DNA of 64,000 bases from Escherichia coli (GCF_050320075.1 NZ_CP190018.1), one strand, 5' to 3'. Numbered from the stretch's first letter, positions 9,728 to 35,982 are shown. Made by a program: numbers and translations. The notes: generated from the letters alone by a model not told the origin.

Positions 9728-9810
9728 GTGTTCCTGTTCTGTGCATCCCGTCACAGGTGATGCTGCCAACTTACTGATTTAGTGTATGATGGTGTTTTTG
9801 AGGTGCTCCA

Positions 9811-10086
9811 GTGGCTTCTGTTTCTATCAGCTGTCCCTCCTGTTCAGCTACTGACGGGGTGGTGCGTAACGGCAAAAGCACCGCCGGACATCAGCGCTAT
9901 CTCTGCTCTCACTGCCGTAAAACATGGCAACTGCAGTTCACTTACACCGCTTCTCAACCCGGTACGCACCAGAAAATCATTGATATGGCCATGAATGGCG
10001 TTGGATGCCGGGCAACTGCCCGCATTATGGGCGTTGGCCTCAACACGATTTTCCGCCATTTAAAAAACTCAGGCCGCAGTCGGTAA
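9811..10086 (+). CDS. insA: IS1 InsA
   Basis: 91-aa [30 protein letters not shown]... Confidence 0.95.
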
Positions 10087-10508
10087 CCTCGCGCATACAG
10101 CCGGGCAGTGACGTCATCGTCTGCGCGGAAATGGACGAACAGTGGGGATACGTCGGGGCTAAATCGCGCCAGCGCTGGCTGTTTTACGCGTATGACAGGC
10201 TCCGGAAGACGGTTGTTGCGCACGTATTCGGTGAACGCACTATGGCGACGCTGGGGCGTCTTATGAGCCTGCTGTCACCCTTTGACGTGGTGATATGGAT
10301 GACGGATGGCTGGCCGCTGTATGAATCCCGCCTGAAGGGAAAGCTGCACGTAATCAGCAAGCGATATACGCAGCGAATTGAGCGGCATAACCTGAATCTG
10401 AGGCAGCACCTGGCACGGCTGGGACGGAAGTCGCTGTCGTTCTCAAAATCGGTGGAGCTGCATGACAAAGTCATCGGGCATTATCTGAACATAAAACACT
10501 ATCAATAA
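10005..10508 (+). CDS. insB: IS1 InsB (made as InsAB' by -1 frameshift at the A6C motif at 10063-10069)
   Basis: 167-aa ORF overlapping insA; AAAAAAC slippery site present. Confidence 0.93.
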
Positions 10509-10523
10509 GTTGGAGTCATTACC

Positions 10524-26402: not shown

Positions 26403-26418
26403 TGTGAGTGATTTCACA
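26403..26418. promoter_or_regulatory. Candidate CRP site of the mgl promoter
   Basis: tgtga gtgatt tcaca, perfect TGTGA-N6-TCACA. Confidence 0.6.
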
Positions 26419-27728: not shown

Positions 27729-29249
27729 ATGGTCAGCTCAACGACTCCGTCTTCCGGGGAATACTTGTTGGAAATGAGCGGTATCAACAAGTCTTTTCCT
27801 GGTGTTAAGGCACTTGATAACGTTAATTTAAAAGTCCGGCCACATTCTATCCATGCATTAATGGGGGAAAACGGCGCAGGAAAATCAACATTATTAAAAT
27901 GCCTGTTTGGTATTTATCAAAAAGACTCCGGCACCATTTTATTCCAGGGTAAAGAGATCGATTTCCATTCTGCCAAAGAAGCGCTGGAAAATGGTATTTC
28001 GATGGTACACCAGGAGTTAAACCTGGTATTACAACGTTCGGTGATGGATAACATGTGGCTGGGGCGATATCCCACCAAAGGCATGTTTGTCGATCAGGAC
28101 AAAATGTACCGCGAAACCAAAGCGATTTTTGATGAACTGGATATTGATATCGATCCGCGTGCGCGCGTCGGCACATTATCCGTTTCGCAAATGCAGATGA
28201 TCGAAATCGCCAAAGCGTTTTCCTATAACGCGAAAATTGTGATTATGGATGAACCGACTTCTTCGTTAACCGAAAAAGAGGTCAATCATCTGTTCACTAT
28301 TATTCGTAAATTAAAAGAGCGCGGCTGCGGTATTGTTTATATCTCACATAAAATGGAAGAAATCTTCCAGTTATGTGATGAAGTTACCGTATTGCGCGAC
28401 GGTCAGTGGATCGCCACTGAACCGCTGGCAGGACTGACGATGGACAAGATCATCGCCATGATGGTTGGGCGTTCTCTTAACCAGCGTTTCCCTGACAAAG
28501 AAAACAAGCCGGGCGAAGTGATTCTTGAAGTGCGTAACCTGACGTCGCTGCGCCAGCCGTCGATTCGCGATGTCTCGTTTGATCTGCATAAAGGGGAGAT
28601 CCTCGGTATTGCCGGTCTGGTGGGGGCGAAACGTACCGATATTGTTGAGACGTTATTTGGTATTCGCGAGAAATCGGCTGGCACCATTACGTTGCACGGC
28701 AAAAAGATCAATAACCATAATGCCAACGAAGCCATAAACCACGGATTTGCACTGGTAACTGAAGAGCGCCGCTCAACGGGAATTTATGCCTATCTGGATA
28801 TCGGTTTTAACTCGTTAATTTCCAATATTCGCAACTACAAAAATAAAGTTGGTTTACTGGATAACTCGCGGATGAAAAGTGATACCCAGTGGGTGATTGA
28901 TTCGATGCGGGTAAAAACACCGGGGCATCGGACGCAAATTGGTTCGCTCTCCGGTGGTAATCAGCAAAAGGTGATTATTGGTCGCTGGCTGTTAACGCAA
29001 CCAGAAATATTAATGCTCGATGAACCGACGCGCGGTATTGATGTCGGGGCGAAGTTTGAGATCTATCAGTTAATTGCCGAGCTGGCGAAGAAAGGCAAGG
29101 GGATTATTATTATCTCCTCCGAAATGCCAGAGTTGTTAGGGATAACAGACCGTATTCTGGTCATGAGTAATGGTCTCGTTTCCGGAATTGTCGATACAAA
29201 AACAACAACGCAAAACGAAATTCTGCGTCTTGCGTCTTTGCACCTTTAA
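27729..29249 (+). CDS. mglA: Galactose ABC transporter ATPase MglA (two ABC domains)
   Basis: 506-aa ORF; Walker [10 protein letters not shown]. Confidence 0.95.
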
Positions 29250-29264
29250 GATTAGGGGCTTCCC

Positions 29265-30275
29265 ATGAGTGCGTTAAATAAGAAAAGTTTTCTTACTTAC
29301 CTGAAAGAGGGCGGTATTTACGTCGTTCTTTTAGTTTTGCTGGCAATTATTATTTTCCAGGATCCTACATTTTTAAGTCTGTTGAACTTAAGTAATATTC
29401 TCACCCAGTCATCGGTGCGTATTATTATCGCGCTTGGTGTGGCAGGGTTAATTGTCACCCAGGGGACCGACCTTTCTGCGGGGCGTCAAGTAGGGCTGGC
29501 GGCAGTGGTGGCAGCGACATTATTGCAGTCCATGGATAACGCCAACAAAGTGTTCCCGGAAATGGCGACGATGCCGATTGCGCTGGTTATTCTGATTGTC
29601 TGTGCCATTGGTGCGGTGATCGGTTTGATCAACGGTCTGATTATCGCCTATCTCAACGTGACGCCGTTCATTACCACGCTCGGCACGATGATCATCGTCT
29701 ATGGCATCAACTCGCTCTATTACGACTTTGTCGGGGCGTCGCCGATTTCTGGTTTCGACAGTGGCTTCTCTACCTTTGCTCAGGGCTTTGTCGCGCTGGG
29801 GAGTTTCCGTCTCTCTTACATCACCTTCTACGCGCTGATTGCGGTGGCGTTCGTCTGGGTGTTGTGGAACAAAACCCGCTTCGGCAAGAACATTTTTGCT
29901 ATCGGCGGTAACCCGGAAGCGGCAAAAGTTTCTGGTGTCAACGTCGGCCTGAACCTGCTGATGATCTACGCGTTGTCTGGTGTGTTCTATGCCTTCGGCG
30001 GGATGTTAGAAGCCGGACGTATCGGCTCTGCCACCAACAACCTCGGCTTTATGTATGAACTGGATGCTATCGCGGCGTGCGTGGTGGGCGGCGTATCGTT
30101 CAGCGGCGGTGTGGGGACGGTGATTGGCGTGGTGACCGGGGTAATTATTTTTACCGTCATCAACTATGGCCTGACGTACATCGGTGTAAACCCGTACTGG
30201 CAGTACATCATCAAAGGGGCGATTATTATCTTCGCCGTGGCGCTGGATTCACTGAAATACGCGCGTAAGAAGTGA
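29265..30275 (+). CDS. mglC: Galactose ABC transporter permease MglC
   Basis: 336-aa multi-TM ORF. Confidence 0.93.
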   Translation: MSALNKKSFLTYLKEGGIYVVLLVLLAIIIFQDPTFLSLLNLSNILTQSSVRIIIALGVAGLIVTQGTDLSAGRQVGLAAVVAATLLQSMDNANKVFPEMATMPIALVILIVCAIGAVIGLINGLIIAYLNVTPFITTLGTMIIVYGINSLYYDFVGASPISGFDSGFSTFAQGFVALGSFRLSYITFYALIAVAFVWVLWNKTRFGKNIFAIGGNPEAAKVSGVNVGLNLLMIYALSGVFYAFGGMLEAGRIGSATNNLGFMYELDAIAACVVGGVSFSGGVGTVIGVVTGVIIFTVINYGLTYIGVNPYWQYIIKGAIIIFAVALDSLKYARKK

Positions 30276-30290
30276 TGTGATTGTGGGTAT

Positions 30291-30340
30291 TGCCGGATGC
30301 GTCGCATCCGGCAATCGGTGCCAAATGCCGGATGCGTCGC
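30291..30340. repeat. REP (BIME) elements between mglC and preA
   Basis: gccggatgcgtcgcatccggc palindrome plus a second atgccggatgcgtcgc copy. Confidence 0.75.
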
Positions 30341-30345
30341 TGGTT

Positions 30346-31581
30346 TTACAATGTTACAGAGTGTTCTTTCTCTCCCTTCTTAAACTTCACTTCCCCAAGC
30401 TCAATACAACCCACCGGGCAGACGTGACCACAAAGCAGACAACCCACGCATTTCTCGGTATTACAATGCGGCGTGCGTGTTTTCTCGCTCCATTCCATCG
30501 CCTGGTGACCGCCGTCGTAACAGGAAATATAACAGCGTCCACAGCCAACACATTTATCGAGATTGATACGGGGATAGACAATATAACTGCGGTCTAAATC
30601 TTCCGCCGGAACAATATTGTTATTCGCCAGACCTACCATCTCCTGCAACGAATCAAATCCCTGATCGGCGAGATAATGCGACAACCCGCTCGCCATATCT
30701 TCCACTATCCGATACCCGTACTGCATAATGCCGGTGGTCACCTGTAACGTTGCTGCGCCGAGCAATAAAAACTCCGCCGCATCCTCCCAGGTTTCAATGC
30801 CGCCGATACCGCTGATCGGGAAATCGCGCAGCTCTGGATGGGTACGTATTTGCTGAATGAAGCGCAGGGCGATCGGTTTTACCGCTTTACCGGAATATCC
30901 GGAAATACTCGATTTACCGTTAACGATCGGCATACCGATTTTCTGATTAAGATCGATATTGGTGATGGATTTAACGGTGTTAATCGCCGCAATGCCATCT
31001 GCGCCGCCGCGCTTCGCCGCCAGCGCCACTTCGCACATATCACCGATATTCGGCGTCATCTTCGCCAGCATTGGCAGCGTGGAACCACGTTTTACTGCCC
31101 GACAATATTTTTCTACCAGCTCCGGGCTTTGCCCGACATCGCTACCCATCGCATGAGAAGTCATTTGCGGACAGGAGAAGTTACACTCGATCATATCCGC
31201 GCCAGCTTCTTGCACCAGACGCGCCAGCTCTTCCCATTGCTGCTCATTTTCGCCCATGATTGAAGCGATCAATACTTTGTCCGGGTAATCTTCTTTCAGC
31301 CGACGCAGGGCGGCCAGATTATCTTCCAACGGATGTTCAGCAATCTGCTCCATATTTTTGAAGCCGATAAAACCGGTATCTTCTTTCACCAGATGATCAA
31401 AACGCGGCGAGACTTCGTTGGCGATAAAAAAGCCGATCGTTTTAAACACCACGCCGCCCCAGCCAGTGTCGTAGGCTTTGGCACACATCTCATAGCAGTT
31501 GCCTACCGGCGAAGAAGAGAGGCAGAACGGGTTGGGAAACTTCACGCCGCAAAAAGTAATCGAAAGATCTTTCGTTAACAT
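30346..31581 (-). CDS. preA: NAD-dependent dihydropyrimidine dehydrogenase subunit PreA (YeiA)
   Basis: [19 protein letters not shown]...; C-terminal 4Fe-4S Cys clusters; listed ORF starts two codons upstream. Confidence 0.92.
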
Positions 31582-32813
31582 GAGCAAGCTCCCTCTAAAT
31601 AGTGATGAATCGCCTCGGCGGCTTCTTTCCCGGTTTTCACGGCATAGACCACGGTTTTGTCCCCCTCAACAATATCGCCAGCAGCAAAGACTTGCGGATC
31701 GCGGGTCTGGTAATTTTGTGTATTGATGGTGTTACGCTGCGGCTCTAACTCCGCAAAGGCATCCAGTCTGGCATGCTGACCGACGGCGAGAATAATTTTA
31801 TCTGCCGCCATCGTCAGTTCGCCCGGTAACCGTACATGCTTAAACGTGACTTTATTGCCTTCCACGGCTACTGGCGTGAATCCATCGATGATCGAAACGC
31901 CCAGCTCCCGAGCGCTGGCAAACTCTTTTTCGCTTGCCGGAAACTCATCTAACTCTTCACGCGCTACGCAAGTTACCGCCTGACAGCCGAGAACTTTCAG
32001 CGTGCTGGCTACGTCCATCGCGACATCACCGCCGCCGATAATTAATGCGCTTTGTGGAATGCTGATATCGCCTTGCGCCTGTCGTGCACGTTGCAAGAAG
32101 TCGACGGCAATCTCAACGTCGCTATGCTCAAACAGTGGTAGCCCCGAACCGCTCGATAACCCCACGGTGACCAGTACCGCGCGGTTTTCCGCTTTCAGCT
32201 GATCCAGGGTAAATGTGTTACCGATTTCGTTATTGCACTTAATGGTCACGCCCATTTTTTCAATACGGGCGATTTCTGCATCCAGTACTGATTGCGGTAA
32301 CCGGAATTGCGGAATGCCGTTACGCAACCAGCCACCGGGTTGTGCTTCTTTCTCATAGATCGTGACGTCATAACCCTGGTTTGTCAGCGTCACACTGGCC
32401 TGCAATCCGGCAGGACCTGCGCCAATAATGGCGACTTTGCCGAGCGTTTTAGTACCGGGCTGATAAATTTCCATCCCAGTTTGTTGTTCAAAATCAGTAA
32501 CAAAACGCTGTAAGCGACCGATATCAATGGGAGTATCAACACCGGCACGGGTACAACCGCTTTGGCATAATTTCTCCGTCGGGCACACTCTGGCACAAAC
32601 GGCACCGAGGGCATTATTTTCGCGAATTGTCTCGGCAGCGCCTTTAAAATTACGAAAGTAGATTGAGCGAATAAATTTCCCCGGATCGGTCTGTGCCGGG
32701 CAAGCCTGACTACAGGGGGCGTCATGGCATAATAAACAGCGAGAGGCTTCTTTAATCGCCAGTAACGGTGTAAAAGCCGGAGTGAGTTCATCCAGATAAT
32801 TTTGTTGCGGCAT
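31575..32813 (-). CDS. preT: NAD-dependent dihydropyrimidine dehydrogenase subunit PreT (YeiT)
   Basis: 412-aa ORF; Fe-S Cys motifs and FAD/NAD GAGPAG fold; overlaps preA start. Confidence 0.92.
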
Positions 32814-32874
32814 GTGATCTTCCTTAATGCTATGAGTAATTAAGGCGAACGCTAAATATACTCGTCATACTTCA

Positions 32875-33045
32875 AGTTGCATGTGCTGCGTCTGCGGGTT
32901 ATTCGGCCCATCCATGGGCCTCACCCCTTATGGGGCCGCTGCAGGCAGCGTTCAAATCCGCTCCATGCGGATTTGTCGCTCACCCCAGTCACTTACTTAT
33001 GTAAGCTCCTGGGGACTCTCTCACTTGTCGCCTTCCTGCAACTCG
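32875..33045. repeat. ERIC (IRU) intergenic repeat element
   Basis: Contains gctcaccccagtcacttacttatgtaagctcctggggac, the reverse complement of the ERIC core; boundaries approximate. Confidence 0.7.
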
Positions 33046-33293
33046 AATTATTTAGAGTATAAATATTGCGTGCTGATATTAAGGCTATGCGCGTGGGGAA
33101 ATTTAAACTGTGAAAGGATTCACAAATAGCTGTGGTTCAGAATGTTATATCCGCAGCTTATTGAGTGAAGTAATAATTATTCTCAATAATTAACAGAAAA
33201 GAGAAAATATTAACGATAGAAAATAAGATAAACAATCAGGTAATGGTGCCAACTTACTGATTTAGTGTATGATGGTGTTTTTGAGGTGCTCCC

Positions 33294-33569
33294 GTGGCTT
33301 CCATCTCCATCAGTTGTCCCTCCTGCTCAGCTACTGAAGGCGTGGTGCGTAACGGTAAAAGTACTGCCGGACATCAGCGCTATCTCTGCTCTCACTGCCG
33401 TAAAACATGGCAACTGCAGTTCACTTACACCGCTTCTCAACCCGGTACACACCAGAAAATCATTGATATGGCCATGAATGGTGTTGGATGCCGGGCAACC
33501 GCCCGCATTATGGGCGTTGGCCTCAACACGATTTTACGTCACTTAAAAAACTCAGGCCGCAGTCGGTAA
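33294..33569 (+). CDS. insA: IS1 InsA (variant)
   Basis: 91-aa [21 protein letters not shown]...; 3 substitutions relative to the copy at 9811. Confidence 0.95.
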
Positions 33570-33991
33570 CCTCGCGCATACAGCCGGGCAGTGATGTGAT
33601 TGTCTGCGCTGAAATGGACGAACAGTGGGGCTACGTCGGTGCTAAATCACGTCAGCGCTGGCTGTTTTACGCGTATGACAGGATACGGAGGACGGTTGTG
33701 GCGCACGTCTTCGGTGAACGCACTCTGGCCACACTGGAGCGTCTTCTGAGCCTGCTGTCGGCCTTTGAGGTCGTGGTATGGATGACGGATGGCTGGCCGC
33801 TGTATGAATCCCGCCTGAAGGGAAAGCTGCACGTAATCAGCAAGCGTTACACTCAGCGCATTGAGCGACATAACCTGAATCTGAGACAACATCTGGCAAG
33901 GCTGGGACGGAAGTCACTGTCGTTCTCAAAATCGGTGGAGCTGCATGACAAAGTCATCGGGCATTATCTGAACATAAAACACTATCAGTAA
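33488..33991 (+). CDS. insB: IS1 InsB (variant)
   Basis: 167-aa ORF; about 12 substitutions relative to the copy at 10005. Confidence 0.93.
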
Positions 33992-34001
33992 GTTGGAGTC
34001 A

Positions 34002-35982
<1,981 letters not shown>

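Follow-up and report, generated by a model that had tools for sequence, protein, structure and literature searches.

The DNA analysed here, referred to as the window, is a stretch of 64,000 nucleotides from Escherichia coli (GCF_050320075.1, NZ_CP190018.1), in which the genes cdd (35098-35982), sanA (34229-34948), yeiS, preT (31575-32813; 412 aa) and preA (30346-31587) follow each other on the minus strand in the direction of transcription. An IS1 element, a spacer and an ERIC element are located, in that order, between yeiS and preT. This arrangement was derived from the list of ORFs combined with the annotation of orthologous records, including that of K-12, the two sources also defining preT. 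The ERIC element occupies an intergenic position downstream of yeiS and upstream of preT, which share one strand, and is separated from the preT start codon by 43 nt (32814-32856, minus strand) containing the ribosome-binding sequence AAGGAAG and present in all alleles of the locus. It is thereby positioned 5' of preT, in the predicted leader region, and not at the end of preTA, a geometry that differs from the one implied by the first-pass annotation. Two further structures were observed in the neighbourhood. Between cdd and sanA, positions 35060-35097 resemble a REP-type palindrome and matched the Rfam family naRNA4 weakly (31.4 bits, threshold 59.5), while an imperfect hairpin at 33131-33159, just 3' of the normal yeiS stop codon and overlapping the approach to a CRP box, is represented by GCTGCGG...CCGCAGC in other strains, carries a G-to-A change in the window and could act as a weak yeiS terminator.

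The ERIC element (synonymous with IRU) was shown to span 32857-33061, i.e. 205 bp including both flanking TA copies, with its bounds obtained from a full-length consensus alignment and its ends fixed by a comparison of empty, short and long alleles. In the orientation of Wilson and Sharp, the consensus lies on the minus strand, corresponding to the preT sense strand. The element is composed of a 127-bp ERIC/IRU and a 78-bp internal segment and therefore represents the long form of the family. The 127-nt E. coli consensus of Wilson and Sharp and a copy from Salmonella (both in PMC2759123, Table 1a) served as references for the alignment. Following removal of the 78-nt segment, 114 of 124 positions were identical to the E. 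coli consensus and 116 of 127 positions, aligned without gaps, to the Salmonella SeRU-1 copy, or ~91% identity to published consensus sequences. The ERIC2 primer sequence was matched at 22 of 22 positions (32977-32998, minus strand) and that of ERIC1R at 20 of 22 positions, with two mismatches (32999-33020, plus strand). Each site occurs once in the 64-kb window, indicative of a single ERIC copy, and neither was found in shuffled versions of the window. The presence of an ERIC is thus far beyond chance, which bears out the earlier assignment of a full ERIC/IRU repeat between yeiS and preT, including by the alignment to the ERIC consensus that had been proposed as its check. The interval originally given (32875-33238) requires correction, as it lacks the first 18 bp of the element and takes in 177 bp of non-ERIC spacer.

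Terminal inverted repeats of 25 nt, 80% complementary to each other, were identified at 32857-32881 and 33037-33061, and the central core at 32977-33020, which carries both ERIC-PCR primer sites, forms the tip of the palindrome. The predicted fold of the long element, whether RNA or single-stranded DNA, is an extended imperfect hairpin from which four small hairpins branch off to one side. The predicted RNA fold of the minus (preT sense) strand amounts to -90.2 kcal/mol (z = -8.1) and that of the opposite strand to -85.8 kcal/mol (z = -8.0), while the short form folds better on the preT sense strand (-52.4 versus -42 kcal/mol). The element thus combines similarity to the consensus over its full length with an imperfect palindrome bounded by terminal inverted repeats, a TA duplication and dispersed copies, the latter found at a median of 6 places per E. 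coli genome with a 160-nt probe holding ~100 nt of ERIC. We know of no partner transposase for ERIC.

Comparison of orthologous E. coli regions revealed three states at this exact site, namely an empty site, as in strain A30 (L003) and in K-12 (with a yeiS-preT spacer of 193 bp), a plain (short) ERIC, as in strain PEC011, and the 205-bp long form. The empty site of A30 reads CGCTAAA-TA-AATATTG, while filled sites exhibit TA on either side of the element (32857-32858 and 33060-33061). Relative to the empty site, the short and long forms are longer by 125 and 203 bp, respectively, and these differences fit duplication of the TA. The element was thus shown to have inserted at a TA dinucleotide and to have duplicated it, in line with the TA duplication described for ERICs in PMC3184786. 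Probe searches were performed on 5,426 complete E. coli genomes, 5,396 of which contain the locus. An ERIC of either form was present in 2,181 of these 5,396 genomes, and the long form in 231, so that ~60% of genomes with the locus are empty (K-12 included), 36% carry the short form and 4% the long form. The ERIC at this site is a dispensable presence/absence polymorphism of a mobile element and, since it is missing from ~60% of E. coli including K-12, any role it has must be modulatory and not essential.

To the left of the IS1, 4.2 kb (29000-33238) are 100% identical to the corresponding region of many strains, e.g. M217 and WCHEC005237, indicating that the window derives from that E. coli lineage with one extra IS1. 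Furthermore, Escherichia sp. MOD1-EC7003 (locus L116) was found to carry the same long ERIC at the same site (orthologous to 32814-33090), but there the palindrome tip has been deleted (32 bp) between direct repeats of TCACTT. Apart from this deletion, the ERIC and its immediate flanks (~280 bp) are identical between the window and L116, while the wider flanks are ~95% identical; such an identical patch could reflect recombination or constraint rather than neutrality. As the ERIC region matches L116 and the outer flanks match L002, our guess is that a patch was exchanged between alleles by recombination. The possibility that a clean deletion between direct repeats had converted the long allele into the short one was considered and discarded, as no endpoint pair, judged by eye, reproduces the short junction (GCG-T-TCGCTC, versus ...GATTTG-TCGCTC in the long form).

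In the interval from yeiS to the ERIC, 47 bp upstream of the latter in the preT sense, a perfect CRP box was identified (TGTGAAAGGATTCACA, 33109-33124). Two perfect CRP boxes occur in the window against 0.06 expected, and the half-sites of the box near preT are kept in K-12, where its 6-nt spacer differs. The second box (TGTGAGTGATTTCACA, 26403-26418) is, from gene order, inferred to lie upstream of mglB, a known CRP target. A candidate -10 hexamer of the preT promoter, AATATT (33062-33067, minus strand), is situated directly upstream of the ERIC, the two bases immediately following it being the target TA. This hexamer matches the consensus at four of six positions in the present haplotype and at five of six in K-12 (TATTAT). 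It starts 49.5 nt from the centre of the CRP box, which would place CRP at -61.5, the classical class I position, and the box and the hexamer (33067-33062) are thus consistent with a class I CRP promoter for preT. RegulonDB includes yeiT (= preT) among the targets of CRP, and yeiT was bound in Genomic SELEX as well (PMC3105977, Table 1). A promoter scan with its own thresholds returned no promoter-like site on the minus strand in 32814-33224, and no mapped preT transcription start site was found in literature searches. Intrinsic-terminator-like sites were likewise not detected on the minus strand from yeiS to preT; the ERIC hairpin lacks a T-run after it and did not score as a terminator.

From the placement of the candidate -10 hexamer, transcription of preTA would start within the first few bases of the ERIC, so that nearly the whole element would be carried as part of a 5' leader of ~240 nt, compared with ~40 nt in K-12. 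The spacing to the CRP box and the consensus-level match of the hexamer thus make it probable that the leader of preTA transcripts contains the ERIC as a long hairpin. A 286-nt leader is predicted to fold at -101.9 kcal/mol, with the ERIC as an independent domain. A hairpin of the native leader that would sequester the ribosome-binding site (CCUUAAU/AUUAAGG) was also considered and rejected, as it is weak and no better than shuffled sequences (z = +0.9).

The reading that we favour, and hold to be probable, is that the feature is one copy of ERIC (IRU) in its long form, a non-autonomous, MITE-like repeat that is mobile and tolerated at this site and whose influence on its surroundings would be a modest by-product. 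According to this reading, the ERIC would be present since it is mobile and tolerated, and not since preTA needs it. Its most likely effect would be a modest change in the processing or stability of preTA mRNA, as suggested by the RNase E site that is exposed in Yersinia ERICs; altered preTA levels can be put forward by analogy only. As summarised in PMC3184786 and PMC10969869, ERICs are TA-duplicating MITEs with RNase E-linked effects, and those of Yersinia are reported to alter the levels of co-transcribed mRNAs.

A stronger version of this idea, along the lines of the transcriptional or mRNA-stability element raised in the first-pass annotation, in which the ERIC is a selected regulatory RNA of preTA whose hairpin sets the half-life of the transcript, attenuates transcription or gates translation, appears unlikely. 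The very stable fold predicted in the preT sense and the better fold of the short form on that strand speak in its favour, yet there is no T-run after the hairpin and no terminator call. Location of the element between the CRP-dependent promoter region and the ribosome-binding site would suit a regulator, as would the reported changes in levels of mRNAs co-transcribed with Yersinia ERICs (PMC3184786, PMC10969869), but additional mobile elements have inserted into this leader in other strains, a sign of tolerance and not of tuning. Finally, the identity of the ERIC region in a divergent Escherichia lineage has to be set against its absence from ~60% of E. coli, among them K-12, in which PreTA activity has been characterised.

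The 78-nt segment that makes this ERIC a long form (~32897-32974, minus strand, bounds uncertain by 1-3 nt) is missing from the short allele at the same locus and lies after ERIC position ~40. Searches of the 5,426 complete E. coli genomes recovered it from 648, usually once, and it was encountered at four E. coli loci (preT-yeiS, topB-hsp70, yehL-yehK and pgi-adhE), at the same internal ERIC position in each case. A pattern scan covering one genome per species yielded at least 120 copies, from Yersinia, Serratia, Dickeya, Brenneria, Citrobacter, Buttiauxella, Budvicia, Leminorella, Symbiopectobacterium, Raoultella, Enterobacter, E. albertii, E. whittamii and one GC-rich MAG. Among the 120 matches listed, 104 are nested in an ERIC with the same relative orientation, for the most part at position ~40-45, three are in the opposite orientation to the ERIC, and 13 have no detectable ERIC arm. 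With its extra segment of ~70-80 bp at a fixed site and its well-folded structure, the long-form ERIC is, judging from these matches, a widespread subfamily.

Some of the copies deserve separate mention. Copies without ERIC arms (L048, 1435-1521; L049, 14359-14445; L020-L022; and L124, 2089-2175) originate from Serratia marcescens MSU97, Serratia sp. DD3 and a GC-rich 'Proteobacteria' MAG, and suggest that the segment may exist independently of ERIC. In the MAG loci L020 and L022, segments abut each other near contig ends; a search of L022 with TRF did not detect tandem segment arrays. In two Budvicia aquatica loci (L043 and L044), the segment is found in the other ERIC arm, past the central palindrome, in the same relative orientation and at approximately the mirror position in the ERIC stem. 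Above-threshold Rfam matches to other RNAs were also recorded in the collected loci, namely an OrzO-P antitoxin RNA near yehK in E. coli NC101 (L006, 703-776; 91.5 bits) and Ysr224 in Yersinia thracica (L030, 63-169; 102.6 bits).

The segment is predicted to fold into four short hairpins (-37.4 kcal/mol). In an alignment of 53 sequences, 96% of the cells at the hairpin positions are paired, decreasing to 30-42% when the partners are slid. Doubly changed cells numbered 53 versus 17.3 +/- 3.1 in shuffles, none of 500 of which reached the observed number. Because the search pattern had fixed part of the sequence, evidence is drawn from the free pairs only. Compensatory changes were also evident in a larger sequence set. 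Counts of G-U versus A-C, as an indication of the strand under selection, revealed no bias once one doubtful closing pair was excluded. On the preT sense strand, the segment aligns to the whole model of Rfam family RF02902 (AaHKsRNA22) at 28.6 bits, below the gathering threshold of 39.8 (E = 0.0015 in a 361-nt search). Homologous copies scored 42.2 (L018), 39.7 (L015) and 37.8 bits (L017), the two highest values being those of Serratia oryzae copies. Other Rfam searches of the region returned only sub-threshold matches, to AaHKsRNA22 and Ysr49, and a literature search for sequence strings of the segment gave no relevant match. A tRNA-like origin, suspected from a TTCAAATC motif, was abandoned as ARAGORN found nothing.

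These properties raise the possibility that the segment is the functional part, either as a conserved structured RNA or as a nested mobile module related to AaHKsRNA22, with the ERIC as its carrier, a proposal that we regard as doubtful. Conservation of the linkers and the compensatory changes in all four hairpins point to a selected structure, but given the lack of strand preference in G-U versus A-C such selection could act on DNA hairpins. The relationship to RF02902 extends over the full model and exceeds the threshold in one Serratia oryzae copy, with another just beneath it, whereas the window copy remains under the threshold. Although members of the AaHKsRNA family were detected by RNA-seq in a survey of Aggregatibacter, AaHKsRNA22 was assigned no function in that survey and many of its sRNAs are repeated sequences (PMC5909427). 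The matches without ERIC arm, including the copies in a GC-rich, non-enterobacterial MAG, would fit an independent module; conversely, a segment carried by only 648 of 5,426 E. coli genomes, usually once, is dispensable.

It is improbable that the main consequence of the insertion is a rewired preT promoter, in which the ERIC would supply a new discriminator and start region together with a new -10 element and would alter CRP dependence or promoter strength. The target TA does directly follow the candidate -10 hexamer, and the end of the ERIC contains TATACT, a five-of-six match to TATAAT, six bases further downstream. With TATACT as the -10 element, however, CRP would be centred at -67.5 and face the wrong side of the helix, while the old hexamer is unaltered by the insertion, and the proposal relies wholly on consensus matching.

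The IS1 (33239-34006, plus strand) measures 768 bp, possesses terminal inverted repeats and encodes insA (33294-33569) and the insB' frame (33488-33991), with the A6C frameshift motif. It is flanked by a 9-bp target duplication (AAACAATCA; 33230-33238 and 34007-34015), of which a single copy is found at the uninterrupted sites of L002, L003, K-12 and L116. The best E. coli matches to this IS1 are 99.9% identical copies located elsewhere in other genomes. Rather than being 'directly adjacent' to the ERIC in a gap tolerant of insertion, as had been supposed, the element lies 177 bp away from it (and 114 bp upstream of the CRP box), within the coding sequence of yeiS, 29 nt before the normal stop codon. 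Alignment with intact yeiS showed that the severed 3' end (33210-33238, minus strand) comprises the last six codons, part of the seventh and the stop codon. Truncated yeiS (34002-34226, minus strand) ends at a stop codon provided by IS1, and its product is reduced from 79 aa (ending MIVYLIFYR) to 74 aa (ending MIVW), the last six residues (YLIFYR) being replaced by a single W. The insertion would probably block read-through from sanA-yeiS, and it does not touch the preT promoter region. A promoter-like site at 33252-33225 (minus strand), in which a 16-nt spacer separates TTGGCA in the left end of IS1 from TATCTT in the flank, may constitute a hybrid promoter reading out of IS1 towards preT, as judged by its consensus match. 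The other IS1 of the window (9756-10523) is a different isoform, identical to the copy at 33239 at 714 of 768 positions; its flanks lack a direct repeat, which suggests a rearrangement or deletion beside it.

Insertions in other strains indicate that the sanA-yeiS-preT neighbourhood is partly an insertion-tolerant spot. In E. coli BS15R-A (L001), an independent IS1B (~605-1393) is present 20 bp from a short ERIC at the same locus, with an unusually long duplication of 21 bp (AAATATTGCGTGCTGATATTA) instead of the usual 9 bp. In L130, an IS1B has inserted in sanA in a strain without an ERIC here. In E. coli HCP30S3_I2 (L129, 206-318), a 113-bp element with IS5-like inverted ends (GGAAGGTGCGAATAAGT...) and a CTAA duplication is located 3 bp from a short ERIC, between the ERIC and preT. 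The notion of an insertion-tolerant neighbourhood, raised in the first-pass annotation, consequently stands as far as these strains are concerned, but does not hold for the IS1 of the window, which disrupted yeiS.

A mechanistic link between the two elements, such as attraction of IS1 by the ERIC structure or joint movement, is considered very improbable. Three independent IS1 insertions in the sanA-yeiS-preT area of different strains, one of them 20 bp from an ERIC, might be taken in its favour, yet the L130 insertion occurred in a strain without the ERIC, and in the window the elements are 177 bp apart, the spacer between them having a G+C content of 31%. IS1 usually prefers AT-rich DNA as its target, and nothing suggests that the ERIC itself attracted it. 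Moreover, the comparison with strains lacking this IS1, likewise proposed at the outset, revealed the long ERIC without IS1 in 231 complete genomes, while the IS1 junction was absent from all complete E. coli genomes searched. Together with L116, these data show the two insertions to be independent events, the IS1 being the unrelated, later one. Lastly, the proposal that an ORF running through the ERIC (32881-33129, plus strand, 82 aa) encodes a peptide can safely be rejected since, although the frame stays open across the 78-nt segment (26 codons) and PMC2759123 discusses ORFs borne by ERICs, it is antisense to the surrounding operon and is not kept in other copies, being interrupted or without start codon in the long ERICs of other genera and disrupted in both L116 (by the 32-bp deletion) and L007 (by a stop codon).

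As an ERIC copy, the element thus matters little, and ERICs, their TA-targeted insertion, strain polymorphism and internal insertions have already been published. For annotation, the corrections to be made are the boundaries of the ERIC, the disruption of yeiS by IS1 and the recognition of K-12 as the empty allele. Two modest new points emerge, the first being that the insertion lies directly after the likely CRP-dependent -10 of preT and the second that the internal segment, widely and strongly conserved, forms a structure with covariation and is related to a family of sRNAs in Rfam. Since the conversion of 5-fluorouracil to dihydrofluorouracil is carried out by PreTA, whose operon is subject to transcriptional regulation (bioRxiv 10.1101/820084), the three-allele leader polymorphism is a candidate source of strain differences in this activity. 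There is a small chance that the locus is of wider importance, either because the leader ERIC, present in ~40% of E. coli, alters expression of this 5-fluorouracil-inactivating enzyme or because the 78-nt segment functions in its own right as a conserved RNA or DNA module. In the former case, an insertion polymorphism that is common in the species would determine, at the level of strains, how gut E. coli metabolises drugs; in the latter, the module would be common to Enterobacterales and, distantly, Pasteurellaceae (AaHKsRNA22), and would occur outside ERICs as well.

In comparison with known systems, the IS1 of the window shares with other IS1 insertion sequences its length of ~768 bp, terminal inverted repeats, the insA/insB' A6C motif and a 9-bp duplication. 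The ERIC does not differ in any essential way from the ERIC/IRU family (Hulton 1991; Wilson and Sharp 2006), with which it shares the 127-nt consensus, imperfect palindrome, terminal inverted repeats, TA duplication, position between genes of one transcriptional direction and variable presence among E. coli strains; the window copy has the 78-nt segment, and K-12 is empty here. PMC10969869 cites Wilson and Sharp for 14 additional ERICs in non-K-12 strains. The segment shares the four-hairpin layout and the linkers GAACG, GAG and CGA with RF02902 (AaHKsRNA22) of Aggregatibacter actinomycetemcomitans, from which it differs in being nested in an ERIC instead of standing alone and in belonging to a different host family. 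ERICs with internal insertions were reportedly described in 1997 by Sharp and by Cromie, Collins and Leach, and the window copy resembles these in having an extra, well-folded ~70-80 bp at a fixed internal site. With the Yersinia ERICs of De Gregorio et al. (2005), it shares the family, the TA duplication and, as predicted for the window copy, co-transcription with flanking genes as a hairpin. Those elements are said to lie next to stop codons and to affect the stability of the upstream transcript through an RNase E site, whereas the window copy is situated in a predicted 5' leader, 43 nt before the start codon of preT.
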